Shown here piece by piece: positions 31,698 through 52,882 of a DNA stretch of 64,000 bases (positions are counted from its first letter, which is position 1; each line of letters starts with the position of its first letter). The stretch is from an uncultured Enterobacteriaceae bacterium (lineage in GTDB: Bacteria; Pseudomonadota; Gammaproteobacteria; Burkholderiales; SG8-39): NCBI GenBank assembly GCA_964461055.1, contig CAYWSG010000004.1, positions 32,792-96,791 on the forward strand, read 5' to 3'. Made by a program: the position numbers and the translations under genes. The notes beneath the pieces were generated by a model. It was not told the origin of the DNA. It worked only from the letters and a program-made list of their open reading frames with translations, and made no database searches.

Positions 31698-31730
31698 GTG
31701 CTTGCGCCGTTGCCGGCAAGACTGGCGGCC

Positions 31731-32887
31731 ATGAAAAAAGCCCTCCTCGCCCTGCTGGTGGTGGCCGCCGCGAGCGGCACGGGATACGGCGCCTGGCTCG
31801 CGTGGGGGAAGCCTGCGCAAAGCGCCACCCCGCGGGCCACCGCCGTGGCGGAGCTCGGGGATCTCGAGGACACCGTCTCGGCCACCGGCACGTTGCAGCC
31901 GCGCGACTACGTTGACGTAGGCACCCAGGTATCGGGGCAGGTGAAGGCGCTGCACGTGGACATCGGCGACACCGTGACGAAGGGGCAGCTCCTCGCCGAG
32001 ATCGACCCGACGGTCTACCGCTCCCGCGTGGAGGCAAGCCGCGCGCAGCTCCTCAACCTCCAGGCGCAGCTTGTGCAGCGGGAAGCCCAGCTCAAGCTCG
32101 CCGAGCAGCGGGCGAAGCGCCAGGCCAACATGATGCGCGAGAACGCCACCACGCTCGAGGCCGTTCAGACCGCGCAGGCGGAGCTGCAGTCGGCGAAGGC
32201 GCAGGTGCAGCAGCTCCAGGCGCAGATCCAGCAGACGCGCTCCACGCTGCAAGGCGACGAGGCGAACCTGGAGTACACCAAGATTCATGCCCCGATGGCG
32301 GGCACCGTCGTCTCGCAAAGCGCCAAGGTGGGCCAGACGCTCAACGCCAACCAGTCGGCGCCCATCGTGCTTCGCATCGCCGATCTCAGCATCATGACGG
32401 TGCAGGCGCAGGTGTCCGAGGCCGACGTCTCGCGTCTTCGCATCGGCATGCCTGTCTACTTCACGACCCTGGGCGAGGGCTCGAAGCGCTGGCGCGGGAC
32501 GCTGCGGCAGATCCACCCGACCCCCGAGGTAGTGAACAACGTGGTGCTCTACAACGCGCTCTTCGACGTTCCGAACCCGGACGGCGCGCTGATGACGCAG
32601 ATGACCACGCAGGTCTTCTTCGTGGTGGACGAGGCGAAGGACGCCGTGCTCGTGCCCGTCGCCGCTTTCCAGCAAAGGCTGCGCGACGGCCAGGCGACCG
32701 TGCAGGTCGTGAGGCCGGACGGAAAGACCGAACTGCGCACCGTGGTGGTCGGCGCGACCAACCGCGTCATGGCCCAGATCGTCTCGGGCCTGCAGCCGGG
32801 CGAGCGGGTCGTCACGACCGAGCGCGCGCGCCCGGGCGCCCGCGACGCCTCGGCGGCGCGTCCGCCCCGCATGATGGGACCGCGCCT

Positions 32888-32891
<4 letters not shown>
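31731..32891 (+). CDS. macA: MacA-like periplasmic adaptor (membrane fusion protein)
   Basis: ATG 31731 gives the signal/anchor [16 protein letters not shown]. Coiled-coil hairpin (QAQL...QLQAQ) and beta-barrel domains. GTGA overlap with macB. Confidence 0.85.
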
Positions 32892-34807
<1,916 letters not shown>

Positions 34808-34811
34808 ACCC

Positions 34812-36200
34812 ATGAAAAAGCTTCTCGTCATCGTCCTGTCAGCTTCCATCGCCGGCTGCGCGACGACCTCGCCGGTGCTGCAGCCGCAGCTCGCCGCGCC
34901 GGCGGCCTGGAACGAGGCGCCGGCGCGGGGGGCCGCCGCGCTGAGCGCCGACTGGTGGACGGCATTCGGCTCGGCAGAGCTGCACGCTCTGGTGGAACAG
35001 GCGCTTGCGGGGAGCCCGGACCTCGCCATCGCAGCCGAGCGCGTGCGGCAGGCGGAATCGCAGGTGCGCGCCGCGGGCGCGTCGCTCTTCCCCTCCGTGG
35101 ACCTCGGCGCGAGCAGCTCCGCGCGGCGCACCCGGCACGAAGACACCGGCCGCTTCGATTCCGAGTCCTCGGGCACCACGCTGAGCGCGAGCTATGAGCT
35201 CGATCTCTGGGGCGCCAATCGCGCCGGGGTGCGGGGGGCCGAGGCGTCGCTGCAGGCCACGACGTTCGATCGCGACGCGGTTCAGCTCACGCTGGTGGCC
35301 GCGGTGGCGAGCGCCTACTTCGAAGTGCTGTCCCTGCGCGGCCGCATCGCCGTGGCCCGGGAGAACCTCGGCCTCGCGGAGCGGGTGCTGTCGCTCGTGC
35401 AGGTGCGGGCCCGCGAAGGCGCCGTCTCGCCCCTCGACCTCGCGCGACAGGAGGCGGCGGTGCTCTCGCAGCGCGCCGCCGTCGTCTCCCTCGAGCAGCA
35501 GGAGCGGCAGGTCCTGACGGCGCTCGCCGTGCTCACGGGCCGCCTGCCCGAGGGCTTCCAGGTCGAGGCGCAGGGGCTCTCGGATCTCGCCGTGCCCGCC
35601 ATCGCGCCCGGGCTGCCGGCCGATCTTCTGGTGCGCCGTCCCGACCTCGCCTCGGCGGAGGCACAGCTCGTGGCGGCGAACGCCGACCTCGCCGCCGCGC
35701 GCGCGGCGCTCCTGCCCTCCATCCAGCTCACCGGCTCGGCTGGCGTGGCGAGCGGCGCGCTCCTCAACTTCCTCGGCGGCCCGACGACCACCGTGGCGCT
35801 CGCCGCCTCGGTGCTGCAGCCCATCTTCGACGGCGGGCGCCGGCGCGCCGGCGTGGCGATCGCCGAGTCGCGCGAGCGCGAGCTCGTGGAGCGCTACCGC
35901 GCCGCGATCCTCGCCGCCTTCGGCGACGTGGAGACGGCGCTCGCCGCAGCGAGCCGCCTGCGCGAGCGCGAGGCGCTGCAGGTCCAGGTCGAGGCCCGCG
36001 CGCGTGAGGCGCTGCGCTTGGCCGAGGTGCGCTACCGCGAGGGCGCCGACGATCTCCTCTCGGTGCTCGACGCGCAGCGCACGCTGTTCGACGCCCAGCA
36101 GCAGCTCGCGCTCGTGCGCCTGGACCGCCTCGACGCCGCGGTGTCGCTCTTCAAGGCGCTGGGCGGCGGCTGGCAGGCGCGCACCGACCTCGCCGCCCGG

Positions 36201-36215
<15 letters not shown>
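34812..36215 (+). CDS. NodT-family outer-membrane efflux lipoprotein
   Basis: Lipobox LSASIAGC, followed by tandem OEP repeats. Confidence 0.9.
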
Positions 36216-38154
<1,939 letters not shown>

Positions 38155-38155
38155 C

Positions 38156-38605
38156 GTGGCGGGGGTCTACGGCCGGCTGCTGAAGGTCCTCGCCGCCTGC
38201 GCGGCCATCCTGCTCGGCGTCACGGCGCTCGCCGTGACGCTCGACGTGGTGGCGAGGAACGTAGGCCTCGGCTCCCTGCCGTGGATCCTGGAAGTCTCCG
38301 AGTACGTCCTGCCGCTCGCCACCTTCCTCGCGGCGCCCTGGCTTCTCTATCGCAATGAGCACATCCGGCTGGACGTCCTCCTCGGCAGCCTGCCCTGGCT
38401 GCGGTACGTCGTCGACCTCGTCGGCCTCGCGGTCTGCGGCGTGCTCGTGGTCTATGGCGTGCGCACGATCCAGAATTCGCTCGCGCAGGGCTCCATGGTC
38501 TTCAAGAGCGTGGTCTTCCCGGAGTGGTGGCTCTTCGTCCCCGTGCCCATCTGCTTCGGGCTGCTCGCCATCGAGTTCGTGCGCCGGCTGGCGACGCGCG
38601 CATGA
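38156..38605 (+). CDS. dctQ: TRAP transporter small permease (DctQ family)
   Basis: 149 aa with four hydrophobic helices. Positioned between the dctP and dctM genes. Confidence 0.85.
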   Translation: MAGVYGRLLKVLAACAAILLGVTALAVTLDVVARNVGLGSLPWILEVSEYVLPLATFLAAPWLLYRNEHIRLDVLLGSLPWLRYVVDLVGLAVCGVLVVYGVRTIQNSLAQGSMVFKSVVFPEWWLFVPVPICFGLLAIEFVRRLATRA

Positions 38606-39918
38606 CCTGGTGGGTTGCGGCGTGTCTGCTGTTCGGTGCGCTGACGGTCCTCTTCGCCGCCGCGGTACCCGCGGCGTTCGCCTTCCTCGGCATCAACATC
38701 GCCGGCGCATGGTTCTGGCTGGGCAAGGACGTGGGCCTCATCCAGCTCGTGCGAAACGGCGTCGCCTCGATCTCCTCGTTCTCGCTCATCCCGATCCCGT
38801 TCTTCGTGCTGATGGGCGAGGTGCTGTTCCACACGGGCGTGGCGCTCAAGGCGATCGACGCGATCGACCGGCTGATCTGGCGGGTGCCGGGGCGCCTCGC
38901 GGTGGTCGCGGTCGTGGCCGGCACCATCTTTTCGGCCATCTCGGGCTCGACCATCGCCACCACCGCGCTCCTCGGCAGCGTGCTGCTGCCCCAGATGCTG
39001 AAGCGCGGCTATCACCCGCGGATGGCGATGGGCCCCATCATGGCGGTGGGCGGCGTCGACATGCTGATTCCCCCCTCGGCGCTCGCGGTGCTGCTCGGCA
39101 GCCTCGCGCAGATCTCGATCGCCGAGCTGCTCATTGCCGGCATCGTGCCGGGCGCCCTGCTTTCCGTGCTCTTCGTGGGCTGGATCGTCCTTCGCGCCAC
39201 CATGAATCCCGCCCTCACGCCGCCGTTCGAGCACGAGCGCGTGCGGGCCTGGGAGCGCTGGAAGCCGCTCCTTGTCTACGTCCTGCCGCTGGTGCTCATC
39301 TTCGTGGTCGTGGTCGCCGCAATGGCGGCGGGGTGGGCGACGCCCACCGAGGCGGCGGCCGTCGGCGCGGTCGCGACGGTGGCCGTCGCCTGGATCTATC
39401 GCGCGCTGACGTGGTCGAATCTGATGCAGGCACTGATGGGAACGGCAGCCATTTCCGGGGCGATCCTCTTCATCATCCTCGGCGCGACCACCTTCGCGCA
39501 GATCCTGACATTCTCGGGCGCGACGAACGGGCTGGTGAGCGCGATCCAGCAGGCGGACCTCGGCCGCTGGATGGTGCTCGCCGCGATGATGGTGATCCTG
39601 CTCACGCTCGGCTGCTTCGTCGACCAGGTGAGCATGATGCTGATCGCCCTGCCGTTCTTCATGCCGCTCGTCGCCGCCTACGGCTTCGACCCGGTCTGGT
39701 TCGGGGTGCTGTTCCTGTTCTGCATGCAGCTCGGCCTCCTTACCCCGCCGTTCGGCATGCTGCTTTTCACGATGAAGAGCGTGGCGCCGAAGGACATCGC
39801 GATGCAGCAGATCTGGATCGCGGCGACGCCCTATGTGGTGATGGGCCTGCTCGGGCTCCTCGCCGTCATCCTTTTCCCGGGGCTTGCGACGTGGCTGCCC
39901 ACGGTGCTGATCAGGTAA
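38602..39918 (+). CDS. dctM: TRAP transporter large permease (DctM family)
   Basis: ATG 38602 (ATGA overlap). 438 aa. SGST.AT and multi-helix DctM pattern. Confidence 0.9.
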   Translation: MTWWVAACLLFGALTVLFAAAVPAAFAFLGINIAGAWFWLGKDVGLIQLVRNGVASISSFSLIPIPFFVLMGEVLFHTGVALKAIDAIDRLIWRVPGRLAVVAVVAGTIFSAISGSTIATTALLGSVLLPQMLKRGYHPRMAMGPIMAVGGVDMLIPPSALAVLLGSLAQISIAELLIAGIVPGALLSVLFVGWIVLRATMNPALTPPFEHERVRAWERWKPLLVYVLPLVLIFVVVVAAMAAGWATPTEAAAVGAVATVAVAWIYRALTWSNLMQALMGTAAISGAILFIILGATTFAQILTFSGATNGLVSAIQQADLGRWMVLAAMMVILLTLGCFVDQVSMMLIALPFFMPLVAAYGFDPVWFGVLFLFCMQLGLLTPPFGMLLFTMKSVAPKDIAMQQIWIAATPYVVMGLLGLLAVILFPGLATWLPTVLIR

Positions 39919-39921
39919 GGC

Positions 39922-42009
39922 ATGGAAAGATCGTTCAAGGAAGAAGTCGCCAAGCTGAAGCTCGGTGAGGGCGAGACGTTTCACGGCGAGGGCATCCTCG
40001 CGGTCACGAAAGCCCTGCTGCAGTCGGGCGTCGCGTATGTCGGCGGCTATCAGGGCGCTCCGGTCTCGCACCTGATGGACGTGCTGCAGGACGCGCGCGA
40101 CATCCTGGGCGAGCTCGGCATCCACGTGGAGGCGAACGCCAACGAGGCGGGCGCCGCCGCGATGCTGGGCGCCTCGATCAACTATCCGGTGCGCGGCGCG
40201 GTCACCTTCAAGTCGACCGTCGGCACGAACGTCGCCTCCGACGCGCTTTCGAACGTCGCCTCCGCCGGCGTGAAGGGCGGCGCGCTCATCGTGCTGGGCG
40301 AGGACTACGGCGAAGGCTCCTCCATCATCCAGGAGCGCAGCCATGCGTTCGCGATGAAGTCGCAGATCTGGCTGGTGGACCCGCGCCCCAGCCTGCCGAA
40401 GATCGTGGAGATGGTCGAGCGCGCGTTCGAGCTGTCCGAGGCCTCGAGCGCGCCCGTCATGCTGGAGCTTCGCATCCGCGCCTGCCACGTCCATGGCACC
40501 TTCCGCACGAAGGCGAACAGGCCCTCGCCGATCTCCAAGCGCAACGTCCTCCAGGACCCCGACTTCGACTACGGCCGCATCTGCCTGCCGCCCGCCACGT
40601 ACGCGCAGGAGAAACACAAGATCGAGGTGCGCTGGCCCGCGGCCGTCGACTTCATCCGCCGCCACGCGCTGAACGAGGTGTTCGAGGGCGAGCGCCGCGA
40701 GCTCGGCATCATCTGCCAGGGCGGCCTCTACAACGCCGTCATCCGCGCCCTCCAGCTCCTCGGCCTCGCCGACGCGTTCGGCGCGTCCCGCGTTCCGATC
40801 TACTGCCTCAACGTGACCTATCCCCTCATCCCGGAGGAAATCGTCGCGTTCTGCCAGGGCAAGCAGTCGGTGCTCGTGGTGGAGGAAGGCCAGCCGGCCT
40901 ACATCGAGGAGGCGATTCTCGCGGCGCTGCGCCGCGCCGAGGCGCACGGCGTGAAGGTGCACGGCAAGGATGTCCTGCCGCTCGCCGGCGAGTACACGGG
41001 CGAAGTGATGCTCGCGGGGCTTTCGCGCTTCTTCGGCGACGAGCGCCGCATCGGCGAGGTGCGCGCGCTCAAAGCGCAGGCCGCCGAGCTGCTCGGCTCG
41101 GGGCTGCCGGTGCGCCCGCCGGGCTTCTGCGTCGGCTGCCCGGAGCGGCCGGTGTTCTCCGCCATGAAAGTCCTCGAGAAGGAGACGGGCCGGTTCCACG
41201 TCTCCGCGGACATCGGCTGCCATCTCTTCTCGAGCCTGCCGCCTTTCAACCTGGGCAACACGGTGCTCGGCTATGGCCTGGGCCTCGCCTCCAACTCGGC
41301 GGTCAACCCGCTCTTCGGCAAGCGCACCTTCACCATCATGGGCGACGGAGGATTCTGGCACAACGGCCTCACGACCGGGATCGCGAGCACGGTCTTCAAC
41401 AAGAACGACGGCATCCTCGTCATCATGAAGAACGGCTACAGCTCGGCCACCGGAACGCAGGAGCTGCCCTCCTCGCCGCAGCATTCGGAGCACAAGAGCC
41501 CGGTCAGCATGGAGCGCGCATTGCAGGGCATCGGCGTAGGCTGGGTGCGCACCGTGGACAACTACCGCGTCGGGGCCGTGGCGAAGACGCTGAAGGAAGC
41601 GATGACGAGCGACTACCAGGGGCTCAAGGTCATCATCGCCGACGGCGAATGCCAGCTCGAGCGCCAGCGCAAGCTCAAGCCCCTGACGGCAAAAAAGCTG
41701 GCTTCTGGAGAGCGCGTTGTCCGGGTGAAGTACGGGGTGGACGAGGACACCTGCACGGGCGATCACTCCTGCATCCGGCTCTCGGGCTGCCCGACGCTCA
41801 CCGTCAAGGACAACCCCGACCCGCTGCGCCGCGAGCCCGTGGCCACCGTCATCGACGGCTGCGTAGGCTGCGGCCTGTGCGGCGAGAACGCGCACGCCGC
41901 CGTCCTTTGCCCGTCCTTCTACCGCGCGGAAGTGGTGCAGAACCCGACCGCGCTCGATCGATTGCTGCATGGCCTGAGGAATCTGTTTCGTGGAACGGCA
42001 GTTCACTGA
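39922..42009 (+). CDS. iorA: Indolepyruvate/arylpyruvate:ferredoxin oxidoreductase alpha subunit, copy 1
   Basis: 695 aa. GGYQGAPVSH, ThDP motif GDGGFWHNG, C-terminal Cys clusters CTGDHSC..SGCP and CVGCGLCGE...LCP. Confidence 0.9.
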   Translation: MERSFKEEVAKLKLGEGETFHGEGILAVTKALLQSGVAYVGGYQGAPVSHLMDVLQDARDILGELGIHVEANANEAGAAAMLGASINYPVRGAVTFKSTVGTNVASDALSNVASAGVKGGALIVLGEDYGEGSSIIQERSHAFAMKSQIWLVDPRPSLPKIVEMVERAFELSEASSAPVMLELRIRACHVHGTFRTKANRPSPISKRNVLQDPDFDYGRICLPPATYAQEKHKIEVRWPAAVDFIRRHALNEVFEGERRELGIICQGGLYNAVIRALQLLGLADAFGASRVPIYCLNVTYPLIPEEIVAFCQGKQSVLVVEEGQPAYIEEAILAALRRAEAHGVKVHGKDVLPLAGEYTGEVMLAGLSRFFGDERRIGEVRALKAQAAELLGSGLPVRPPGFCVGCPERPVFSAMKVLEKETGRFHVSADIGCHLFSSLPPFNLGNTVLGYGLGLASNSAVNPLFGKRTFTIMGDGGFWHNGLTTGIASTVFNKNDGILVIMKNGYSSATGTQELPSSPQHSEHKSPVSMERALQGIGVGWVRTVDNYRVGAVAKTLKEAMTSDYQGLKVIIADGECQLERQRKLKPLTAKKLASGERVVRVKYGVDEDTCTGDHSCIRLSGCPTLTVKDNPDPLRREPVATVIDGCVGCGLCGENAHAAVLCPSFYRAEVVQNPTALDRLLHGLRNLFRGTAVH
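41719..41949 (+). repeat. 231-bp perfect direct repeat, copy A (3' end of iorA copy 1)
   Basis: Identical base-for-base to 43808..44038 by my alignment of the two stretches. Confidence 0.9.
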
Positions 42010-44083
42010 GGAGATCAAGGCGCTGAAGCTCGGCGCGGGGGAGACTTTCCACGGCGAGGGCATTCTTGCCGTGACCAAGGCGCTCCTTCAGTCGGGCGTC
42101 TCCTATGTCGGCGGCTACCAGGGTGCGCCCGTCTCCCACCTGCTCGACGTGATGGTGCAGGCGAGGGAATACCTGGACGGGCTCGGCGTGCACGTCGAAG
42201 CGTGCACCAACGAAGCCGCCGCGGCCGCCATGCTGGGGGCCTCGGTCAACTACCCCGCGCGCGGCGCCGTCACGTGGAAGTCCATCGTCGGCACCAATAT
42301 CGCCTCCGACGCGCTCTCGTACCTGTCGAGCGCGGGCGTGATGGGCGGCGCGCTCATCATCGCGGGCGAGGACTACGGCGAGGGCGCGAGCGTCGCCCTC
42401 GAGCGCACGCACGCCATCGCCCTCAAGTCCTCGATGTGGCTGCTCGATCCGCGCCCCAACCATGCGACGATCGTCCGCCTCGTCGAGAAGGGCTTCGAGC
42501 TCTCCGAGGCGAGCAACACGCCCGTGATGGTGGAGCTGCGCATCCGCGCCTGCCACCTGCGCGGCTCTTTCGAGGCCAAGGACAATCGCACGCCCGTTGT
42601 GTCGCTGCGCAACCGCCTCGACGGGCCGCCCGCGGAGTTCGTCTACGACCGGCTCGCGCATCCGCCCGCCACCTTCCGGCAGGAGAAGCTGAAGGCCGAG
42701 GTGCGGCTTCCCGCCGCCCGGCGCTTCGTGGCCGAGCAGCACCTGAACGAGACCTTCGACGGCGCCGAAAAGGACGTCGGCATCATCGTCCAGGGCGGCC
42801 TCTACAACGGCGTCGTGCGGGCGCTGCAGACGCTCGGCCTCGCCGACGGCTTCGGCGGCTGCCGCATCCCGATCCTCGCCCTCAACGTGGTCTATCCGCT
42901 GGTGCCGGAGGAGATCAGCGGGTTCTGTGCGGGCAAGAAGGCGGTGCTCGTCGTCGAGGAGGGCCAGCCCGAGTTCATCGAGCAGGAGATCGCGACGCTG
43001 CTCCGCCGGGCCGACGTGCAGACCCGGCTCCACGGCAAGGACTGCCTGCAGATGGCGGGCGAGTACACCGTGGAAGTCATGACCCGCGGCCTCATCGCCT
43101 TCCTCGCGCGCCACGGCGGCCATCTCGATACGAGTCGTGGCGCGGCCTGGCTTCAGCGCGCGGAGTCGATTCGCAAGGAAGCCGCGGACCTGCTCGCGGC
43201 GCCGCTGCCGCAGCGCCCGCCGGGCTTCTGCATCGGCTGCCCCGAGCGCCCGGTCTTCTCGGCCATGAAGCTCATGGGCCGCGAGATCGGCAAGCCGCAC
43301 GTGTCGATGGACATCGGCTGCCACTCGTTCGCCTCGTTCGAGCCGTTCTCCCAGGGCAACACCGTGCTCGGCTACGGCATGAGCCTCGCCGCCTCGGCCG
43401 CCGTCGGCCCGATGTCGAGCCGCCGCCCGGTGGCGATCATGGGCGACGGCGGTTTTTGGCACAACGGGCTCCTCTCCGGCGTCGCCTCCCGGCTGCTCAA
43501 CGAAGGCGACGGGGTGCTGGTCATCATGAAGAACGGCTACAGCTCGGCCACGGGGACGCAGGATCTCCTCTCCTCGCCGAAGAACAGCGCGCAAAGCATC
43601 GAGAGCGCCTTGAAGGGCCTCGGCGTGAAGTGGATGCGCACCGTGGACAACTACCGCGTCGACGAGGTAAAGAAGACGCTCACGGAGGCGATGACCTCGG
43701 ACTATCAGGGGCTCAAGGTCGTCGTCGCCGAGGGCGAATGCCAGCTCGAGCGCCAGCGCAGGCTCAGGCCTCTGGTTTCCGAGAAGCTCAAGAAGGGTGA
43801 TCGGCACGTCCGGGTGAAGTACGGGGTGGACGAGGACACCTGCACGGGCGATCACTCCTGCATCCGGCTCTCGGGCTGCCCGACGCTCACCGTCAAGGAC
43901 AACCCCGACCCGCTGCGCCGCGAGCCCGTGGCCACCGTCATCGACGGCTGCGTAGGCTGCGGCCTGTGCGGCGAGAACGCGCACGCCGCCGTCCTTTGCC
44001 CGTCCTTCTACCGCGCGGAAGTGGTGCAGAACCCGACCCTGCTCGACCGCGTGGTCGCGAAGCTGAGAGGAGTATTCGCATGA
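41990..44083 (+). CDS. iorA: Indolepyruvate/arylpyruvate:ferredoxin oxidoreductase alpha subunit, copy 2 (tandem paralogue)
   Basis: GTG 41990, 20 nt inside copy 1. 697 aa with the same motif set as copy 1. Confidence 0.9.
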   Translation: MERQFTEEIKALKLGAGETFHGEGILAVTKALLQSGVSYVGGYQGAPVSHLLDVMVQAREYLDGLGVHVEACTNEAAAAAMLGASVNYPARGAVTWKSIVGTNIASDALSYLSSAGVMGGALIIAGEDYGEGASVALERTHAIALKSSMWLLDPRPNHATIVRLVEKGFELSEASNTPVMVELRIRACHLRGSFEAKDNRTPVVSLRNRLDGPPAEFVYDRLAHPPATFRQEKLKAEVRLPAARRFVAEQHLNETFDGAEKDVGIIVQGGLYNGVVRALQTLGLADGFGGCRIPILALNVVYPLVPEEISGFCAGKKAVLVVEEGQPEFIEQEIATLLRRADVQTRLHGKDCLQMAGEYTVEVMTRGLIAFLARHGGHLDTSRGAAWLQRAESIRKEAADLLAAPLPQRPPGFCIGCPERPVFSAMKLMGREIGKPHVSMDIGCHSFASFEPFSQGNTVLGYGMSLAASAAVGPMSSRRPVAIMGDGGFWHNGLLSGVASRLLNEGDGVLVIMKNGYSSATGTQDLLSSPKNSAQSIESALKGLGVKWMRTVDNYRVDEVKKTLTEAMTSDYQGLKVVVAEGECQLERQRRLRPLVSEKLKKGDRHVRVKYGVDEDTCTGDHSCIRLSGCPTLTVKDNPDPLRREPVATVIDGCVGCGLCGENAHAAVLCPSFYRAEVVQNPTLLDRVVAKLRGVFA
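43808..44038 (+). repeat. 231-bp perfect direct repeat, copy B (3' end of iorA copy 2)
   Basis: Identical to 41719..41949. Offset 2089 bp. Confidence 0.9.
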
Positions 44084-45540
44084 GCCTTCCCGAGCGCCCC
44101 CTCACCATCCTCATCGCCGCCCTCGGCGGCGAGGGCGGCGGCGTCATGGCCGACTGGCTGATGGAGGCCGCCACCCGCTGCGGCTATCCGGCCCAGGCGA
44201 CGTCGATCCCCGGCGTCGCGCAGCGGACCGGCGCGACCACGTACTACCTGGAGATCTTCCCGGCCACCCGCGAGGCGCTGGGCGGGCGCGAGCCGGTTTT
44301 CTCGCTCACCGCCAGCCCGGGCAACGTGGACCTCATGGTCGCCTCCGAGCTGGTCGAGGCCGGCCGCGCCATGCAGAACGGCTACGTGAGCCCCGACCGC
44401 ACGACGCTGATCGCCTCCACCCACCGCATCTACGCCACCATGGAGAAGATGCAGATGGGCGATGGCCGCTTCGACAGCGACCGGATCCTGGAGGCGGCGC
44501 GGCGGCTCGCCAAGCGGCCTGTGCTCTTCGACATGCGCTCGCTCGCGCAGCAGAGCGGCACGGTCATCAACGCGGTGCTCTTCGGCGCGATGGCGGGAAG
44601 CGGCGCGCTTCCGCTCCCTCGCGAGGCCTGCGAGGCCGCCATCCGGCGCGCCGGGCGGGGCGCCGAAGCGAGCCTGCGCGGGTTCGCGGCCGGCTTCGAC
44701 ATCGCCGCGGGCGCGAAGCCCGCGCCGCAGCCCGCCCCGCCACCCAAGCGGGCGACCGAGCTCGAGGAGATCGTCCGGCTCGGACGCGAGCGCCTCACCG
44801 ACTACCAGGGCGAGGCCTATGCCGCGCTTTACCTCCGGCGCCTCGAGCCTTTCATGGAGGGAGACTCCCGGGTCGCGGCCGAGGTCGCGCGCCAGCTCGC
44901 CCTCTGGATGGCCTTCGAGGACATCATCCGGGTTGCGGACCTGAAGACGCGCGCGAGCCGCTTCGAGCGGGTGCGGCGCGAGGTCGGCGCCAAGGAAGGC
45001 GAGCCCGTCGTCGTCATCGACTACCTCAAGCCCGGCCTCGAGGAGTTCGCCTCCGTGCTGCCCGCCGCGCTCGGCCGGCGCCTGCACGACTGGGCCGAGC
45101 GGCGCGGCAAGCTCGACGCGTTCCACATCGGCATGCACATCAAGACCTCGAGCATCAGCGGCTACCTGCTCGTACGCTCGCTCGCGTGGCTGAAGCCGCT
45201 GCGCCCGTACAGCTACCGCTTCCAGGAGGAGCAGCGGCTCATCGAGCGCTGGCTCGCGCTCGTCGCCGAGGCGGCTCGCCGCGACGCAGCCCTCGCTTTC
45301 GAGGTCGCCGCCTGCGCGAGCCTGGTGAAGGGCTACGGCGAGACCCACCGGCGCGGCAAGGGCAACTTCCTCGCCATCATGGACGCCCTCGTCGAGAACG
45401 CGCCGGTCGACGACCCGAAAGAGCAGGCACGCGCGCTTCGCAAGGCGCGGGAGGCGGCGCTCGCCGACCCCGAAGGCCAGGCGCTCGGCAAGACCCTCGG
45501 CAAGCCGGTCGTCTGGCTGAAGCCCGTGGCGCACACGTAG
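44080..45540 (+). CDS. iorB: Indolepyruvate:ferredoxin oxidoreductase beta subunit (long proteobacterial form)
   Basis: ATG 44080 (ATGA overlap). N-terminal ILIAALGGEGGGVMADWL of the POR-gamma/IorB type. 486 aa. Confidence 0.85.
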   Translation: MSLPERPLTILIAALGGEGGGVMADWLMEAATRCGYPAQATSIPGVAQRTGATTYYLEIFPATREALGGREPVFSLTASPGNVDLMVASELVEAGRAMQNGYVSPDRTTLIASTHRIYATMEKMQMGDGRFDSDRILEAARRLAKRPVLFDMRSLAQQSGTVINAVLFGAMAGSGALPLPREACEAAIRRAGRGAEASLRGFAAGFDIAAGAKPAPQPAPPPKRATELEEIVRLGRERLTDYQGEAYAALYLRRLEPFMEGDSRVAAEVARQLALWMAFEDIIRVADLKTRASRFERVRREVGAKEGEPVVVIDYLKPGLEEFASVLPAALGRRLHDWAERRGKLDAFHIGMHIKTSSISGYLLVRSLAWLKPLRPYSYRFQEEQRLIERWLALVAEAARRDAALAFEVAACASLVKGYGETHRRGKGNFLAIMDALVENAPVDDPKEQARALRKAREAALADPEGQALGKTLGKPVVWLKPVAHT

Positions 45541-45564
45541 AATCGGTTTTTTCGGGACACTCCC

Positions 45565-46611
45565 ATGGCCAGCGTTCCGCAGGCAGACCTCCAGGCCGAG
45601 CGCAAGGCGCTCTACCGGCGCATGGACAAGCAGAACCTCGCTCCCCTTTGGGAGGTGCTGCATGCGCTTATTCCGAACCAGCCCGAAACGCCGTGCAAGC
45701 CCGCGCTCTGGCGCTATCGCGAGGCGAGGCCCTACCTCATGGAGGCGGGCAAGCTCATCACGGCCAGGGAAGCCGTGCGTCGCGTGCTCATCCTCGAAAA
45801 CCCCGGCATGCGGGGCAAGTCGTGCATCACGCAGAGCCTGTACGCCGGGCTGCAGCTCATCCTGCCGGGCGAGGTCGCCCCGAGCCACCGCCACGCGCAG
45901 TCGGCCCTGCGTTTCATCGTGGAGGGCTCCGGCGCCTACACGGCGGTGGACGGGGAGCGCACGACGATGCACCCGGGCGACTTCATCATCACGCCCTCGT
46001 GGACCTGGCACGACCATGGCAATCCGGGCAACGAGCCGGTCGTGTGGCTGGACGGCCTCGACATTCCCATCGTTCAGGCGCTCGCCGCGCAGTTCCAGGA
46101 GCCCCACGAGCAGGAAGTGCAGCCCGTGTCGCGCAGTGAAGGCGCGGCCGCAGCGCGTTTCGGCAACGGCCTGAAGCCGCTCGGCGCGGCTTCCCCTTTC
46201 GGCAGGACCTCGCCGGTCTTCAACTATCCCTATGCCCGTAGCCGGGAGTCGCTCGCCGGCCTCGCGCAAGATTCGGACCCCGATCCCTGCCACGGCTGGA
46301 AGATGCAGTTCGTGAATCCCCTCACCGGCGGGCACGCCATGCCGACGATCGGCGCCTTCATCCAGCTCCTGCCGAAGGGCTTTGCCGGGCAGGCGGTCCG
46401 CGCCACCGACGGCACCGTCTACTCCGTCGTGGAAGGCCGCGGCACCGTGACGGTGAACGGGGAGACCTTCGACTTCGAGCCGCGCGACACCTTCGTCGTG
46501 CCTTCCTGGATGCCCTGCGCCCTCGCGGCGCAGGACGAGACGGTGCTCTTTTCGTTCTCCGACCGTCCCGTGCAGGAGGCCCTCGGGCTGTGGCGCGAGC
46601 AGCGCGGCTAG
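45565..46611 (+). CDS. Gentisate 1,2-dioxygenase (bicupin)
   Basis: 348 aa. [27 protein letters not shown] and WHDHGN motifs typical of gentisate dioxygenases. Confidence 0.9.
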
Positions 46612-46613
46612 CG

Positions 46614-47465
46614 ATGGAGGCCCTGGGCGCCGATCTCGAGCGCGAGTACAACAACCGGGCGCTCGTTCCCGACCACGCGGACTATTTCGCCCGCTGGGCG
46701 GAGAGCTCGGAGCGCGCCCGGCGGACCATGACCCGCCACCTCGACCTGCGCTACGGCGACATGCCGGGAGAGACGCTCGATCTCTTCCCCGCGCGCAAGG
46801 GCGACGGCACCTGCATGCTGTTCATCCATGGCGGCTACTGGCGCGCCCTCGACAAGAAGGACTTCTCTTTCCTTGCGCCGACCTGGGTGGACGCCGGCGT
46901 TTCCCTGGCGGTGGTGAACTACGACGTCTGTCCCGCGGTGACGATCGAGGAGATCGTGCGCCAGATGCTGCGCGCGAGCCGCTGGCTCTGGCTGAACGCG
47001 GAAGCCTACGGCATGGACCAGGACCGCCTCTATGTCAGCGGGCACTCGGCCGGCGGCCATCTCACGGCGATGATGATGTGCGCGCTTTTCCCCCGGTTCG
47101 ACCCCCGGCTTCCCCGCGACCTCTGGAAGGGCGGCCTCGCCGTCAGCGGGCTCTACGACCTGCGGCCGCTCCTGCAGGTGCCCTTCCTCCAGCAGGACCT
47201 GCGCCTCGACGAGGAGTCCGCGCGCCGGCTTTCGCCGGCCTTCATGCCGCCGGCGACCCGCGCCCCGGTCATGACCTGCGTCGGCGGGGACGAGTCCTCC
47301 GAGTTCCACCGCCAGAATCGGCTGCTCGGGGAGCGCTGGCGCTCCGCCTTTGCCGGCGACATCGCGATGCCGGGCAGGAACCATTTCTCCGTCATGGACG
47401 GCCTTGCCGAGGCCTCGAGCGCGCTCTTCCAGGGCGCCCGGCGCCTCATGAAGCTCGACAAATGA
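46614..47465 (+). CDS. Alpha/beta hydrolase (HGG plus GHSAGG; arylformamidase/esterase-like)
   Basis: ATG 46614, 3 nt after the dioxygenase stop. FIHGGYW oxyanion motif and nucleophile elbow GHSAGGH. Confidence 0.8.
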   Translation: MEALGADLEREYNNRALVPDHADYFARWAESSERARRTMTRHLDLRYGDMPGETLDLFPARKGDGTCMLFIHGGYWRALDKKDFSFLAPTWVDAGVSLAVVNYDVCPAVTIEEIVRQMLRASRWLWLNAEAYGMDQDRLYVSGHSAGGHLTAMMMCALFPRFDPRLPRDLWKGGLAVSGLYDLRPLLQVPFLQQDLRLDEESARRLSPAFMPPATRAPVMTCVGGDESSEFHRQNRLLGERWRSAFAGDIAMPGRNHFSVMDGLAEASSALFQGARRLMKLDK

Positions 47466-48100
47466 ACGACGACCTGAAATCGACGCCTTTCATCGACAGC
47501 GACCATCCCGCCGTAGCGGCCTTCGCGCGCGCGCACGCCAAGGGCGACTCGGAAGTCGAGCGTGCCATCGCGCTCTACTACGCGGTGCGCGACGACATTC
47601 GCTACAACCCGTTCCTCGATTTCAGCGACCCGGAGGTTTATCGCGCCTCCGCCGTGCTCGCCAGGGGCGAGGGCTTCTGCGTCGGCAAGGCCGCGCTCCT
47701 CGCCGCCACGGCGCGCGCGTCGGGCATCGCCGCCCGGGTGGGCTTTGCGGACGTGAAGAACCACCTCACCACGCCCCGGCTTGCCGAGACGATGGGCTCG
47801 GACCTCTTCATCTACCACGGCTTTACCGAGCTCAAGCTCGGGGGACGGTGGGTGAAGGCCACGCCCGCGTTCAACCTCGCGCTCTGCCAGCGCTTCCGCG
47901 TGAAGCCGCTCGAGTTCGACGGCGTGAACGACTCGATCTTCCATCCGTTCGACGAGGACGATCGCCGGCACATGGAATATGTGCGCGACCGCGGCAGCTT
48001 CACCGACGTTCCGGTGGCCGAGATCCAGGCGGCATTCCGCGAGGCTTATCCGAAGTTCTATGGCCTCGGCCGCGAGGCGGCCAAGGAGACCTTCGGCTGA
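47462..48100 (+). CDS. Transglutaminase-like (Cys-His-Asp fold) protein
   Basis: ATG 47462 (ATGA overlap). GEGFCVGKAALLAA core with downstream His/Asp. 212 aa. Confidence 0.7.
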   Translation: MNDDLKSTPFIDSDHPAVAAFARAHAKGDSEVERAIALYYAVRDDIRYNPFLDFSDPEVYRASAVLARGEGFCVGKAALLAATARASGIAARVGFADVKNHLTTPRLAETMGSDLFIYHGFTELKLGGRWVKATPAFNLALCQRFRVKPLEFDGVNDSIFHPFDEDDRRHMEYVRDRGSFTDVPVAEIQAAFREAYPKFYGLGREAAKETFG

Positions 48101-48123
48101 GCGCGCCCGTCGATGGCGCGCAG

Positions 48124-49380
48124 ATGCGTGCGCTCCTCGAAGAAAGCTTTCGCGCCGCCGTCGCGGCGGCCGACCCGCAGCGCATTCTGACCGCCCATCT
48201 GCCACGGCCGCCCAAAGGCCGCACCTACGTCGCCGCGGCCGGCAAGGCCGCAGCCGCCATGGCCGTCGCGGTGGAGTCCGCCTGGGACGAGCGCTGGCCG
48301 CTCGAGGGGATTGCGATCACGCGGTATGGGCACGGCCTGCCCACCCGCCGCATCCGCGTGGTCGAGGCCGGCCATCCGGTGCCCGATGCGGCAGGCGAGG
48401 AAGCCGCGCGAGCGATCGTCGCGCGGGTGCGCGAGCTGGGGAAGGACGATCTCCTGCTCGCCCTGCTCTCGGGGGGCGGCTCGAGCCTGCTTTCGCTACC
48501 GGCCGATGGGATCTCCATGGCCGACCTGAAGGCGGTGACGCGCGATCTCCTGCGAAGCGGCGCTGCGATCCAGGAGATGAATACCGTGCGCAAGCACCTC
48601 TCCGCGATCCACGGCGGGCGCCTCGCCGCCGCCAGCGGCGCGCCGGTGGTCGCGCTCATCATCTCCGACGTCACCGGCGACGATCCCACGCACATCGCCT
48701 CCGGACCCTGCGCGCCGGATCCGACCACCTACGCCGACGCGCTCGAGATCCTGGAGCGCTATCGTGTCACGCCGCCGCCGGCCGTGCGGGCACGGCTGGA
48801 AGAGGGCGCCGACGAGACGCCGAAGCCCGGCGATCCGGTGTTCGAGCGGGTACAAAACAAGGTCATCGCCACCGCGCACCGCTCGCTCGAGGCGGCGGCG
48901 GCGGTGTTCGAAAGACACGGCATTCGGCCGGTGATCCTGGGCGACACGATCACCGGCGAGGCGGCCGAGGTCGCGAAGGTCATGGCCGCCCTGGTTCGCG
49001 AGATCAGGACCCACGCCTCTCCATGGAAGGCGCCGGTGGCGCTCATCTCGGGAGGCGAATGCACGGTCACCGTGCGGGGGGAAGCGGGCCGGGGCGGACG
49101 CTGCAGCGAGTTCCTGCTCTCGCTGGGGATCGAGCTGGAGGGCGTGGCGGGCGTGTTCGCGCTCGCGGCCGACACGGACGGCATCGACGGCTCCGAGGAC
49201 AATGCCGGCGCCTGTCTCGGGCCCGAGACGCTGGCGCTCGCGCGCCGCCAGGGCGTAGATCCGCGCGCGGCGCTTGCCTCGAATGACAGCTACGGAGCGT
49301 TCGCGGCGGCCGGTGCGCTACTGGTCACCGGCCCCACGCGGACCAACGTGAACGACTACCGGGCGATTCTGGTCGCCTAG
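48124..49380 (+). CDS. MOFRL-family glycerate 2-kinase / hydroxypyruvate reductase (TtuD-like)
   Basis: 418 aa. [25 protein letters not shown] and TGPT.TNVND motifs. Confidence 0.85.
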
Positions 49381-49850
49381 GCGGCGGCCTTCTTCGCTTC
49401 GGCCTTCTTCGAGCCCTCGGCTTTCTTCGAGCCTTCCTTTTTCGCCGGCTTCTTCCTTTTCTCTTCCGCGGGCGCGGCGGCAGCCGTCTCTTCCCCGCGC
49501 TCGACGAGCATCACCAGCGCGAGGGGGGCGTTGTCGCCCTTGCGGAAGCCCGTCTTGAGGATGCGCAGATAGCCGCCGTTCCTCTTGGCGAAGCGCGGGC
49601 CGAGGTCGTCGAACAGCTTGACCACGATCTCCCGGTCGCGCAGCCGGTCGAAGGCGAGGCGCCGGTTCGCGAGCGAGGGCTTCTTGCCGAGGGTGATCAT
49701 CGGCTCGACCACCCGCCGGAGCTCCTTCGCCTTCGGCAGCGTCGTGCGGATCTCCTCGTGGCGCAGCAGCGAGACGGTCATGTTGCGAAGCATCGCGAGC
49801 CGGTGGCTCGACGTGCGGTTGAGCTTGCGAAGTCCGTGTCCGTGGCGCAT
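49377..49850 (-). CDS. rplQ: 50S ribosomal protein L17, with Lys/Ala-rich C-terminal tail
   Basis: [17 protein letters not shown]. Last gene of the alpha operon. 157 aa. Confidence 0.95.
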
Positions 49851-49906
49851 GGGACCTGTTTCCGATTCGTGCGTTCTTGGTGTGCGTTCCTGCCGGCTTG
49901 CGTGCC

Positions 49907-50887
49907 CTAGGCGCGGTGCTCGAGGCCGGCCGGCGGCCAGTTCTCGAGCTTCATCCCGAGCGTGAGGCCGCGCGAGGCGAGCACTTCCTTGATCTCGTTG
50001 AGCGACTTGCGGCCGAGGTTCGGCGTCTTGAGGAGCTCGGTCTCGGTGCGCTGGATCAGGTCGCCGATGTAGTAGATGTTCTCGGCCTTGAGGCAGTTGG
50101 CCGAGCGCACCGTGAGCTCGAGGTCGTCCACCGGGCGCAGCAGGATCGGGTCGACCGCCGGCGACTTCGGCTGCTCGGCGGGCAACGCGGTGCCCTCGAG
50201 CTGGGCGAAGACGGAGAGCTGGTCGACCAGCACGCGCGCGGCGTACCGGATGGCCTCTTCGGGCTCGATGGCGCCGTTCGTCTCGATGTCCATGATCAGC
50301 TTGTCGAGGTCGGTGCGCTGCTCGACGCGCGCGGACTCCACCGCGTAGGAGACGCGGCGCACCGGGCTGAACGAGGCATCGAGGATGATGCGGCCGATGC
50401 CCTTGGTCTCCTCGGGCAGGTAGCGCATGTTGCCCGGGACGTAGCCGCGCCCGGACTCGACCTTGATCTGCATCTCGAGCTTGCCGCCCGAGGCGAGATG
50501 GGCGATGACGTGGTCCGGGTTGACGACCTCGACGTCGTGCGACGGCTCGATGTCGGCCGCGGTGACCGGTCCTTCGCCGCTCTTCTTCAGGCTGAGGACG
50601 GCCTCGGCGCGGTTGTGCAGGCGGAACACGACGCCCTTCAGGTTGAGAAGGATGTCGACCACGTCCTCGCGCACCCCGTCGAGCGTGGAGTACTCGTGCA
50701 CGACGCCCGCGATCTGCACCTCGGTGGGCGCATAGCCCGGCATGGACGAAAGCAGCACGCGCCGCAGCGCGTTGCCGAGCGTGTGCCCGTAGCCGCGCTC
50801 GAACGGCTCCATGGTCACCCGTGCGTGGTTGGCCGAGAGGTTCTGGACATCGACAATCCGCGGCTTGAGAAATCCCGATTGCGGCAT
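49907..50887 (-). CDS. rpoA: DNA-directed RNA polymerase alpha subunit
   Basis: 326 aa. ...[15 protein letters not shown]... and C-terminal domain [12 protein letters not shown]. Confidence 0.97.
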
Positions 50888-51004
50888 GGTGTTTAGGGTC
50901 CTATGTGCTTCGCGCGGTCCCGCGCGGTTGCTACGCCAAAGCGCTACGCATCTACCAGCAGGGCGCCGTCGATCCGGCCGCGGCGCCCCGCGTGTTCCTT
51001 CGTG

Positions 51005-51634
51005 TTACTTCGAGTACAGCTCGATGATGAGGCTCTCGTTGATCGAGGAGGAGAGATCGGCGCGCGCCGGCAGGCTCTTGAAGGTGCCTTTCAGCGCCTT
51101 GACGTCGACTTCCATCCAGTCGGGCAGCCCGCGCGACTCGGCCGCCTCGGCGGCCGCCTTGATGCGAAGCTGCTCCTTCGCCCGGCTGGCGACCTCCACC
51201 ACGTCGCCCGGGCGCACCTGGTAGGACGGGATGTTCACCCGCTTGCCGTTCACCAGGATGCCGTTGTGCCGCACGACCTGCCGCGCTTCCGCGCGCGAGG
51301 CGCCGAAGCCCATCCGGTAGGCGACCGTGTCGAGCCGCGTCTCGAGGCGCTGGAGAAGCTGCTCGCCGGTCACGCCCTTGCCGCGCGCAGCCTCGGCATA
51401 CGTGTTGCGGAACTGCCGCTCGAGCACGCCGTAGATCCGGCGCATCTTCTGCTTCTCGCGCAGCTGCTTGCCGTAGTCGGAGAGGCGAGCGCCGCTTTTC
51501 TGGCCGTGCTGGCCGGGGGCGTAGGCGCGCCGCTCGACCGCGCACTTGTCCGTGAAGCACTTCTCGCCCTTCAGGAAGAGCTTCTCCCCCTCCCGGCGGC
51601 ACTGGCGGCACTTGGCGTCTAGGTTTCGGGCCAT
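51005..51634 (-). CDS. rpsD: 30S ribosomal protein S4
   Basis: [26 protein letters not shown]. Operon position. Confidence 0.96.
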
Positions 51635-51652
51635 GTCTGTTGCGTCTCCTTG

Positions 51653-52078
51653 CTATACGCGCCGGCGCTTGGGCGGGCGGCAGCCGTTGTGCGGGATCGG
51701 GGTCACGTCGGAAATGCTGCCGATCTTGAGGCCGATGGCGTTCAGCGCGCGCACCGCGGACTCGCGGCCCGGGCCCGGGCCCTTGATGCGCACCTCGATG
51801 TTCTTCACCCCGCATTCCTGCGCCGCGCGTCCGGCGCGCTCGGCGGCCACCTGCGCCGCGAAGGGCGTGGACTTGCGCGAGCCCTTGAACCCCGCGTTGC
51901 CGGAAGTCGCCCAGGAGAGCGTGTTGCCCTGGCGGTCCGTGATCGTGATGATGGTGTTGTTGAACGACGCGTGCACGTGGGCGATGCCCTCGGCGACGTT
52001 CTTCTTGACCTTCTTCCGCGCGCGCGCGGCGGCCGTCTGCTGGAGTTCCTGCCGGGTCGGTTGGTTTCTGCTTGCCAT
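51653..52078 (-). CDS. rpsK: 30S ribosomal protein S11 (N-terminally extended)
   Basis: ...[22 protein letters not shown]. 141 aa. Confidence 0.95.
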
Positions 52079-52101
52079 GTGGTTTCCTGGTTACCGGCGC
52101 C

Positions 52102-52485
52102 TCAGCCCATCTTGCCGGCCGGCGTGTTGAGCTTCACGGCGGCCTTGCGCGGCCCCTTGCGGGTGCGGGCGTTCGTGCGCGTGCGCTGCCCGCGCACCGG
52201 CAGGCCCTTGCGGTGACGCATGCCGCGATAGCAGCCGAGGTCCATCAGCCGCTTGATGGACATCGAGACCTCGCGGCGCAGGTCGCCCTCGACGGCGAGC
52301 TTCGACACGTTGTCGCGCAGGCGGTCGAGCTCCGCGTCGGTGAGGTCCTTGATCTTGCGCGAGCCCTGCACGCCCGCGGCCTGGCAGATCGCCTGCGCCC
52401 GCGCGCGGCCAATGCCATAGATTGCGGTCAGCGCGATTTCCGCGTGCTGGTGATTCGGTACGTTGATGCCGGCGATGCGTGCCAT
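52102..52485 (-). CDS. rpsM: 30S ribosomal protein S13
   Basis: [26 protein letters not shown]. Confidence 0.96.
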
Positions 52486-52497
52486 AGGGAACCCGAG

Positions 52498-52527
52498 ATT
52501 ATATCCGTATTAACAATGCTTTAGCAA
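52498..52527 (-). promoter_or_regulatory. Candidate alpha-operon promoter TTGCTA-n18-TATAAT
   Basis: Read on the minus strand in the AT-rich 52-bp rpmJ-rpsM spacer. The -10 ends only 12 nt before the rpsM ATG. Confidence 0.35.
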
Positions 52528-52537
52528 CCGCGCCGCC

Positions 52538-52651
52538 TCAGCCCTGGCGCTGCTTGTGCCGCGGGTCGGAGCAGATCACCCGCACCACGCGCTTGCGCCG
52601 CACGATCTTGCACTTGCGGCAGATCTTCTTCACCGATGCCATGACTTTCAT
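52538..52651 (-). CDS. rpmJ: 50S ribosomal protein L36
   Basis: Not in the ORF track (37 codons). My translation is [37 protein letters not shown]. Confidence 0.93.
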
Positions 52652-52662
52652 AGTTCCTTCCT

Positions 52663-52881: not shown

Positions 52882-52882
52882 G

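Follow-up and report, generated by a model that had tools for sequence, protein, structure and literature searches.

The 64-kb stretch analyzed here (the window; G+C about 69%), part of contig CAYWSG010000004.1 from an uncultured soil bacterium of the Burkholderiales, carries two consecutive genes, A1 and A2, for alpha subunits resembling those of indolepyruvate ferredoxin oxidoreductase (IOR), followed by a single gene (B) for an IOR-like beta subunit. This arrangement of two alphas and one beta is real and conserved, and is a variation on the known modularity of the 2-oxoacid:ferredoxin oxidoreductases (OFORs). The reading that we prefer, with a probability of roughly 55% on the basis of comparative sequence data, is that two catalytic alphas, probably differing in their substrate pocket, share the single beta. 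The most interesting new element is a gene conversion limited to the ferredoxin-like domain of the alphas, which follows the lineage of the beta. The features that carry this argument are the following.

39922..42009, plus strand: A1, IorA-like alpha subunit of core type 1, 695 amino acids (aa), ATG start (PF02775; TIGR03336, 275.8 bits)
41990..44083, plus strand: A2, IorA-like alpha subunit of core type 2, 697 aa, GTG start (PF02775; TIGR03336, 236.4 bits)
44080..45540, plus strand: beta, single long IorB-like subunit, 486 aa (PF01558 and PF20169; NF006179, 579.9 bits)
41719..41949, plus strand: gene-conversion tract, A1 copy, encoding all of the ferredoxin-like domain, residues 600-676 (231 identical nucleotides, nt)
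43808..44038, plus strand: gene-conversion tract, A2 copy (231 nt identical to 41719-41949)

A preliminary description of this DNA, made from its letters and reading frames, had reported two full-length alpha genes, the second starting at a GTG 20 nt inside the first, and one IorB gene of 486 aa joined to A2 by an ATGA overlap. All of this was borne out: 39922..42009 and 41990..44083 are both open, the GTG at 41990 lies within A1 with a 20-nt overlap and is preceded by a GAGGAA ribosome-binding site (RBS) at 41976-41981, and the ATG of the beta gene at 44080 overlaps the stop codon of A2. The protein A1 begins with MERSFKEE and A2 with VERQFTEE, and A2 aligns with A1 and with the rest of the family from residue 1 (MER.F..E). 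An A1/A2 overlap of 20 or 28 nt, with an ATG, GTG or TTG start at the same place, is found in eight other genomes. The identity between the two alphas, estimated by eye at 65-80%, was computed as 68% for the proteins and 74% for the DNA. The beta contains PF01558 (POR, OFOR domain III) at residues 16-206 and PF20169 (DUF6537) at residues 228-435. The search of the 64-kb window revealed no further copy of an alpha or a beta, in agreement with the earlier claim of a single beta for the two alphas.

The synteny survey for iorA-iorA-iorB triplets showed that the unit recurs in at least 12 other assemblies and is not an accident of one genome. It comprised two scans of one-genome-per-species contigs, with A1 and with A2 as query, followed by tblastn surveys, and all its counts are lower bounds; as known loci were missed by the scans (the A2-query scan did not return the A2 genes of L006 and L007), absences from them are no proof. 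The order A1-A2-B was found in at least nine species-level metagenome-assembled genomes (MAGs; L001, L002, L003, L004, L006, L007, L020, L040 and L041), all of them from uncultured Burkholderiales or labeled 'uncultured bacterium', and two more contigs that end at the edge of the locus (L005, L031) are compatible with it. Three long metagenome contigs picked from the A1 matches (L160-L162) carry the complete ten-gene operon described below, and two of these, L161 and L162, adjoin rplQ-rpoA as the window does. Two alphas also accompany one beta in the order A1-B-A2 (L013, L015, L019) and with A1 separated by 6 kb from A2-B (L038/L093). The A1 type stands alone in operons of the order A1-B-gentisate 1,2-dioxygenase (GDO)-esterase (L008-L011) and the A2 type alone in the order B-A2-GDO-esterase (L042, L060, L062, L066), with B-A2 also in L096 and L107. 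All other loci are plain A-B pairs, present in many Alpha-, Beta- and Gammaproteobacteria, among them Variovorax, Ottowia, Hydrogenophaga, Ramlibacter, Hylemonella and Bordetella. The matches listed include no cultured organism that has the triplet. For each alpha type, over 120 protein clusters (formed at 90% identity) that are at least 75% identical to the query came from metagenomes, mostly those of JGI and ENA, and all of them bear the name 'indolepyruvate ferredoxin oxidoreductase alpha subunit'. The A1 protein of the window was itself found on an ENA metagenome contig that carries the same genes.

The preliminary description had taken A1 and A2 for tandem, diverged copies of one gene, and on this point it has to be revised. 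Over the core (residues 1-590), each alpha is nearer to the single-alpha enzymes of other genomes than to its neighbor. For the triplet A1 proteins, core identity is 77% with alphas from A1-B-GDO operons and 73% with the alpha that comes first in A1-B-A2 loci; for the triplet A2 proteins, it is 72% with alphas from B-A2 operons and 70% with the alpha that comes second in A1-B-A2 loci, whereas the A1 and A2 cores are 63-64% identical to each other, and either of them 61-64% to the unrelated alphas of plain A-B pairs. Phylogenies of the two alphas never recovered them as sisters: a clade of A1 plus A2 appeared in 0 of 100 neighbor-joining (NJ) bootstraps and in 0 of 500 replicates of a four-cluster test, in which A1 and A2 each joined a different single-alpha set every time (500/500). 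The four-cluster test was used in place of hand-defined type 1 and type 2 sets, whose NJ support was 16% and 15%, with borderline single-alpha sequences shifting. A recent tandem duplication was ruled out by the same figures, the A1 and A2 cores being 63% identical to each other but 72-77% identical to those of single-alpha enzymes of their own type. Because the cores are not sisters the pair is old, and the two-alpha state would either predate the split between A1-A2-B and A1-B-A2 loci or have been assembled from two lineages.

Twenty-seven positions are type-specific, being at least 90% conserved within each type and different between types. The type-2-derived changes N111Y and I136A fall on residues whose conservation elsewhere in the family is 100% and 92%, respectively, and a type-specific cluster lies at 437-443, just past the proximal-cluster ligand C433. 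Placement relative to the pocket was made by motif alignment to pyruvate:ferredoxin oxidoreductase (PFOR), matching YPITPS to YQGAPVS and using the ...EQD loop and Cys840-Ile843 of the D. africanus enzyme; on this alignment type-specific loops would lie near the substrate pocket.

Within the window, the 231-nt tract common to A1 and A2 has sharp edges, with dense mismatches immediately on either side of it. The tails that follow (41950-42009 in A1 and 44039-44083 in A2) are wholly different from each other. The A1 tail overlaps the RBS and start codon of A2, and the A2 tail overlaps those of B; these overlaps may explain why the tract stops at 41949. When the tract was compared across genomes by means of motif-anchored segments, A1 and A2 of the other triplet genomes were 87-91% identical in it, compared to about 67% for the remaining gene. 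In the triplet clade, tract identity was 87.5% between A1 orthologues, 87.2% between A2 orthologues and 87.1% between A1 and A2 of different genomes; these three values are indistinguishable, and the paralog signal has therefore been erased. With the window excluded, A1 and A2 had a tract identity of 0.897 within a genome versus 0.870 between genomes (permutation test; p = 0.0002). Over residues 1-600, the within- and between-genome identities of A1 and A2 were equal. The window tract is 86-88% identical both to the A1 and to the A2 tracts of its closest relatives, so that the two possible donor sides are equally matched.

In the wider family, the protein sequence of this domain comes in two types. 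Betas were assigned to type I (67-100% identical to the window beta) or type II (64-100% identical to the L062 beta). Alphas that stand beside a type-I beta (triplet A1, triplet A2, those of A1-B-GDO operons and A2 of L093) are 92-93% identical in the C-terminal domain, and those beside a type-II beta (those of B-A2 loci, both alphas of A1-B-A2 loci, and L016-L018) are 83-92% identical, whereas identity between the two sets is 71-73%. The domain thus follows the lineage of the beta and not that of the core, a pattern that points to recurrent gene conversion; type-2 cores with a type-I domain and type-1 cores with a type-II domain are combinations that divergence alone cannot produce. As judged from these identities, the domain has passed between paralogs at least once per lineage, and again very recently in the genome of the window.

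Both alphas retain what a catalytic subunit needs in its cofactor sites. The thiamine diphosphate (ThDP) motif GDGGFWHNG and the C-terminal cysteine clusters had been pointed out before in both of them, and A1 and A2 indeed keep all the cysteines that show no variation across a family alignment of 56 sequences: C403, C406, C433 and C577, the putative ligands of the proximal [4Fe-4S] cluster, and C611, C617, C623, C647, C650, C653 and C663, all seven in the ferredoxin-like domain. The two proteins match all of the invariant columns of this alignment (at least 150), and in the ThDP-binding PP domain G474-D475-G476 and N504 are invariant in the 56 members. Inactivating changes in cofactor ligands, which the preliminary description had named as evidence that would speak against its proposal, were found in neither alpha. 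The first ferredoxin motif reads C-T-G-D-H-S-C-x5-C-P (C-x2-D-x2-C...CP; 41752-41791 and 43841-43880, A1 residues 611-624). The ferredoxin-like domain thus has seven Cys plus the family-invariant Asp614, at a place where a classical 2x[4Fe-4S] ferredoxin has Cys, and because Asp614 replaces the expected Cys, one cluster may be [3Fe-4S] or Asp-ligated. The G+C content at third codon positions (GC3) is 0.92-0.93 in A1 and A2, like that of the neighboring genes, and the median ratio of nonsynonymous to synonymous substitution rates (dN/dS) in nine triplet genomes was 0.196 for A1, 0.198 for A2 and 0.239 for the beta. In L001 (MAG 's9_12', the closest GTDB relative), A2 (10046-12139) has a TAG at codon 560, which elsewhere encodes Tyr (TAC); this is either a sequencing error or a lineage-specific loss.

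OFORs are described as symmetric dimers of identical protomers, and IOR as either an alpha2beta2 enzyme or a fused chain. The predicted A1/A2/B enzyme is an IOR-like member of this superfamily and not an IOR equivalog, a filing adopted because the alphas score far under the cut-off of TIGR03336, the equivalog model of the IOR alpha (650.9 bits); the alignment to that model spans residues 26-655 with E = 6e-82, so that the alphas are end-to-end homologues of archaeal IorA without being the archaeal-type equivalog. The beta exceeds the cut-off of NF006179 ('indolepyruvate oxidoreductase subunit beta family protein', 348 bits), and scores 40.7 bits against TIGR03334, the equivalog model of the short archaeal IOR_beta (cut-off, 205.8). 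Several hallmarks of an OFOR are present: a PP domain with GDG...N, the proximal-cluster cysteines, a ferredoxin-like module, and domain III (PF01558) as a separate subunit. A phmmer search of the PDB by sequence with A1 gave no match, and a profile of the 56 sequences gave marginal ones only (E = 0.01-0.1), to ThDP enzymes and the PP domain of PFOR. An AlphaFold2 model of A1, built from an alignment of 66 sequences of two sub-families (66-90% identical to A1), had a mean predicted local distance difference test (pLDDT) score of 56.3 and a predicted template modeling (pTM) score of 0.53, and was confident only at residues ~230-350. In Foldseek, the best geometric matches of this low-confidence model were the OFOR alpha chains 8ys5_A, 9bt4_A, 5c4i_A and 6n2n_A, with template modeling (TM) scores of 0.38-0.61 normalized by target length over ~380-410 columns; OorA, the M. 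acetivorans PFOR and oxalate oxidoreductase are among them, at 0.56-0.61.

In the reading that we prefer, each alpha chain would consist of a Pyr domain, domain II, a PP domain with the ligands of the proximal [4Fe-4S] cluster, and the ferredoxin-like domain, and would thus be a complete module of active site and electron wire, lacking domain III (the coenzyme A, CoA, side). The long IorB would supply domain III, each alpha-beta pair making a complete protomer, and A1 and A2 would each assemble with the same beta. Solved OFOR structures show ThDP between domains I and VI, with the proximal cluster inside VI. Their protomers meet through I, II and VI, the surface is where III and V lie, and the pocket that accommodates the ferredoxin domain has III and VI as its walls (PMC5020499). 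The ferredoxin-like domain of A1 and A2 would accordingly be placed facing the beta and an external acceptor, and recurrent conversion would keep it interchangeable while the catalytic cores remain different. A1 and A2 would most likely take different but related 2-oxo acids, probably aromatic, delivered by the tripartite ATP-independent periplasmic (TRAP) transporter encoded upstream, and their acyl-CoA products would enter the gentisate-type ring cleavage encoded downstream.

Operons with A1 only and with A2 only exist in the same context, and each type is therefore competent with a beta alone, which argues against an obligate heteromer; mixed A1/A2 dimers are possible. One beta goes with two alphas in three gene orders, and the overlaps that couple A1 to A2 and A2 to B are conserved. 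Both functional options put forward in the preliminary description, an alpha/alpha'/beta enzyme and two alphas of different specificity with a common beta, are sensible; taken together, the comparative data favor isoenzymes with a shared beta over an obligate heteromer. Some points weigh on the other side. Coupled translation at 1:1:1 would leave the beta sub-stoichiometric if each alpha needs a beta of its own. The single-alpha state was seen at the level of operons, in MAGs that are incomplete and with scans that missed known loci. The argument on the pocket is drawn from a motif-level alignment to PFOR. Finally, the homogenization of the C-terminus could be neutral, as conversion favors the most similar segment.

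The best-surviving alternative is a hetero-oligomer A1·A2·beta2, obligate or preferred, in which the two alphas pair across the I/II/VI interface and form two non-equivalent active sites, for instance for alternating-site catalysis or for two substrates. We regard it as possible but unlikely. The tight co-translation through the 20-nt overlap conserved in nine genomes, the occurrence of two alphas with one beta in three independent gene orders and the equal constraint on both alphas would all suit such an enzyme, as would the ThDP sites of OFORs, which are ~16 Å apart and may communicate (PMC5020499), and a distance between the type 1 and type 2 cores (0.508) slightly below the cross distances to other groups (0.555-0.565). 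However, the same transporter/dioxygenase/esterase context is found with only A1 (L008-L011) or only A2 (L042, L060, L062, L066), the presence of all catalytic and cofactor residues in both means that neither alpha looks like a structural partner, and the interface-forming domains (residues 1-600) are without concerted evolution. A related proposal, a heterodimeric A1·A2 core with two beta copies, two different active sites and identical ferredoxin-like exits, in which selection for compatibility with the single beta and the acceptor drives the domain-restricted conversion, seems to us equally doubtful; if true, the heterodimer would be the first asymmetric OFOR, with concerted evolution confined to one interface domain.

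Rather improbable, in our view, is that A1 and A2 are redundant isoenzymes with the same substrate range, kept for dosage or for different conditions (oxygen, temperature). A single, translationally coupled operon makes separate regulation impossible, and a need for dosage would be served by a recent duplicate, which the A1/A2 pair is not. Operons with A1 only, with A2 only and with two alphas do share their downstream pathway genes, and most substrate-proximal motifs, including GGYQGAPVSH, KNGYSSATGTQ and F436, are identical in A1 and A2, but both lineages have kept their core divergence of about 36% under purifying selection, and the type-specific changes N111Y and I136A fall at otherwise invariant positions. 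That one copy is non-functional, as a decaying paralog or an artefact of assembly or binning, is very improbable: apart from the in-frame TAG in A2 of L001, both genes are full length with high GC3 and a dN/dS of about 0.2, different projects have produced more than 12 independent assemblies with this arrangement, metagenomes contain over 120 clusters of proteins (90% identity) for each of the two types, and a pseudogene or assembly artefact was rejected on dN/dS and on recurrence in L160-L162.

The shared beta that we favor has a counterpart outside the IOR family. The preliminary description knew of no characterized example, and this stands for IOR, where no paper on a two-alpha enzyme was found, and not for pyruvate and 2-ketoisovalerate ferredoxin oxidoreductases (POR and VOR): in Thermococcales (Pyrococcus furiosus, Thermococcus guaymasensis), POR and VOR share the gamma subunit Por/VorG (PMC4058850). 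The literature search returned nothing relevant on two-alpha IOR, on IOR with gentisate or on DUF6537. As in those archaea, two paralogous catalytic sets lie side by side with a single gene for domain III, and the Thermococcales sets differ in 2-oxoacid specificity (PMC4058850). The differences are several: alpha, beta and delta are split there, with a separate ferredoxin-like delta for each enzyme, whereas here they are one chain and the fused domain is kept identical; porG is a transcription unit of its own, whereas the beta of the window is translationally coupled to A2; and the window beta has the extra DUF6537, unlike the shared archaeal subunit. The PorG gamma is OFOR domain III and belongs to PF01558, the same Pfam family as the N-terminal half of the window IorB. 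Physical sharing of the subunit has been shown biochemically in Thermococcales and is here inferred from the genes.

Archaeal IorAB is an alpha2beta2 enzyme. It resembles the window proteins in the ThDP motif, the proximal-cluster cysteines, the C-terminal ferredoxin-like domain and a beta with a POR domain, and differs from them in several respects: the beta of the window has 486 aa with DUF6537, compared to 189 positions in the TIGR03334 model, the first ferredoxin motif here belongs to a domain of seven Cys plus Asp, the YPITPS-type motif is YQGAPVS, and the host is an aerobic-type Betaproteobacterium with two alpha genes per beta gene. The fused bacterial proteins of the IOR family (~1170 aa, NF009589/NF009588) fix an alpha-like and a beta-like part at 1:1 in a single polypeptide, which, unlike the arrangement in the window, makes subunit sharing impossible; residues 37-515 of A1 and 5-304 of the beta align to positions 56-545 and 726-1034 of the fused model with 135 and 77 bits (cut-off, 816).

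Among aerobes, IadA and IadB are annotated as IOR alpha and beta in the iad operon for aerobic auxin degradation of Variovorax, Achromobacter and Bradyrhizobium (PMC9613470, PMC12852158), and neither of these papers gives them a function, although the pair serves as a marker of the operon. That operon, like the one in the window, places IorAB-type genes among genes for aromatic-acid catabolism in aerobic Proteobacteria; it combines a single alpha gene with genes for a MarR regulator and the Rieske dioxygenase IadCDE, whereas in the window two alpha genes go together with those for a LysR regulator, a TRAP transporter and gentisate 1,2-dioxygenase. Membership of the window genes in an iad auxin operon was rejected on their neighbors (LysR, DctPQM, GDO, esterase, transglutaminase-like and MOFRL proteins). 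In two Variovorax loci (L139:11802-13004 and L024:12796-13938), a plain alpha-beta pair is followed by an alpha-hydroxyacid dehydrogenase (PF01070) dependent on flavin mononucleotide; both also have a TRAP or ATP-binding cassette (ABC) transporter after the pair. This context hints at a route from a 2-hydroxy acid through a 2-oxo acid to an acyl-CoA.

The constant partners of the enzyme genes are a TRAP transporter, gentisate 1,2-dioxygenase, an esterase-type hydrolase, a transglutaminase-like protein and a MOFRL protein, to which L013 adds a monooxygenase dependent on flavin adenine dinucleotide and L018 a Rieske oxygenase. L002 (12192-14516) differs from the other triplet operons in that the esterase gene comes directly after the beta gene, with no gentisate 1,2-dioxygenase gene detected in between. 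Our guess from this gene content is that the substrate is an aromatic 2-oxo acid, an aryl-glyoxylate or an aryl-pyruvate, and that the aroyl- or arylacetyl-CoA product might be hydrolyzed and its ring then cleaved by the dioxygenase. The data would fit equally well with aryl-glyoxylates (2,5-dihydroxyphenylglyoxylate giving gentisyl-CoA), with aryl-pyruvates or with the 2-oxo end of maleylpyruvate.

If the shared-beta reading is right, sharing of the domain-III subunit, until now known only from archaeal POR/VOR, would also occur in bacterial IOR-like enzymes of aerobic soil Burkholderiales. The ferredoxin-like domain that tracks the beta would be a pointer, obtained from sequences alone, to the part of the alpha that matches the shared partner, and the genes would offer a clean natural example of domain-restricted concerted evolution with a catalytic core that is still divergent. 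The clade is abundant in soil metagenomes and probably marks an uncharacterized route of aromatic-acid catabolism; as the IOR-like family is uncharacterized in aerobes, the related IadAB included, any biochemical result on it would be new.

A1-A2-B lies at the center of a ten-gene block on one strand that runs from DctP to the MOFRL protein. Its other genes and the signals around them are listed here.

36201..37127, minus strand: LysR-family regulator, divergent (PF00126 and PF03466)
37132..37161, plus strand: sigma-70-like promoter match, TTGACA-18-TACATT, in the gap between the LysR gene and dctP, 28 nt before dctP
37189..38154, plus strand: DctP, solute-binding protein of a TRAP transporter, 321 aa, with signal peptide (PF03480)
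38156..38605, plus strand: DctQ, TRAP small permease (PF04290)
38602..39918, plus strand: DctM, TRAP large permease, 438 aa (TIGR00786, PF06808; gene also called on the ENA metagenome contig)
45565..46611, plus strand: gentisate 1,2-dioxygenase, a bicupin (TIGR02272, 538.9 bits, cut-off 442.1)
46614..47465, plus strand: alpha/beta-hydrolase of the hormone-sensitive-lipase type, esterase or thioesterase candidate (PF20434, PF07859)
47462..48100, plus strand: transglutaminase-core-like protein, with an ATGA overlap with the esterase gene (PF01841)
48124..49380, plus strand: DUF4147/MOFRL protein, glycerate 2-kinase-like (PF13660 and PF05161; NF041176 below its cut-off)
49416..49433, plus strand: terminator-like hairpin with a T-run, directly after the last gene

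The LysR gene has the same position in L160-L162, its product is 68-85% identical across related loci, and it is likely to regulate the operon. The promoter match is the only one between 36000 and 49900, but it is a match to consensus only (one site, compared to 0.7 expected by chance). The terminator-like hairpin fits a single transcription unit and is not significant (two sites, compared to 6.1 expected). No Rfam family was found in 35000-50000. Gentisate 1,2-dioxygenase adjoins the beta in related loci too. The esterase-type hydrolase scores 203 bits with NF058665, under its cut-off; its gene has an alternative GTG start at 46590, and the protein has 284 aa in L160-L162. The transglutaminase-like gene is kept in L042 and L160-L162, and the DUF4147/MOFRL gene in L042, L062 and L160-L162.

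On the downstream side, a cluster for ribosomal proteins and the RNA polymerase alpha subunit (rplQ, rpoA, rpsD, rpsK, rpsM, secY and others) occupies the minus strand from 49377 to 64000 and abuts the operon. As this junction with rplQ-rpoA is also present in L161 and L162, the chromosomal position of the operon is stable in the clade. Immediately upstream of the LysR gene, 31656-36215 encodes a tripartite ABC efflux system of the MacA/MacB/NodT type, next to a histidine kinase gene.

30277-31635, minus strand: histidine kinase
31656-32891: efflux adaptor
32888-34807: fused ATPase-permease
34812-36215: outer-membrane factor

The transporter genes of the operon differ in their relationships from the enzyme genes. 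DctP, DctQ and DctM of the window are 82, 67 and 82% identical to those of L160 and belong to one type with them, whereas for L161, to which A1, A2 and B of the window are most closely related (85-90%), the values are only 66, 43 and 61%. This divergence of the transporter, out of step with that of the enzyme genes, suggests a swap of the TRAP module between close relatives.

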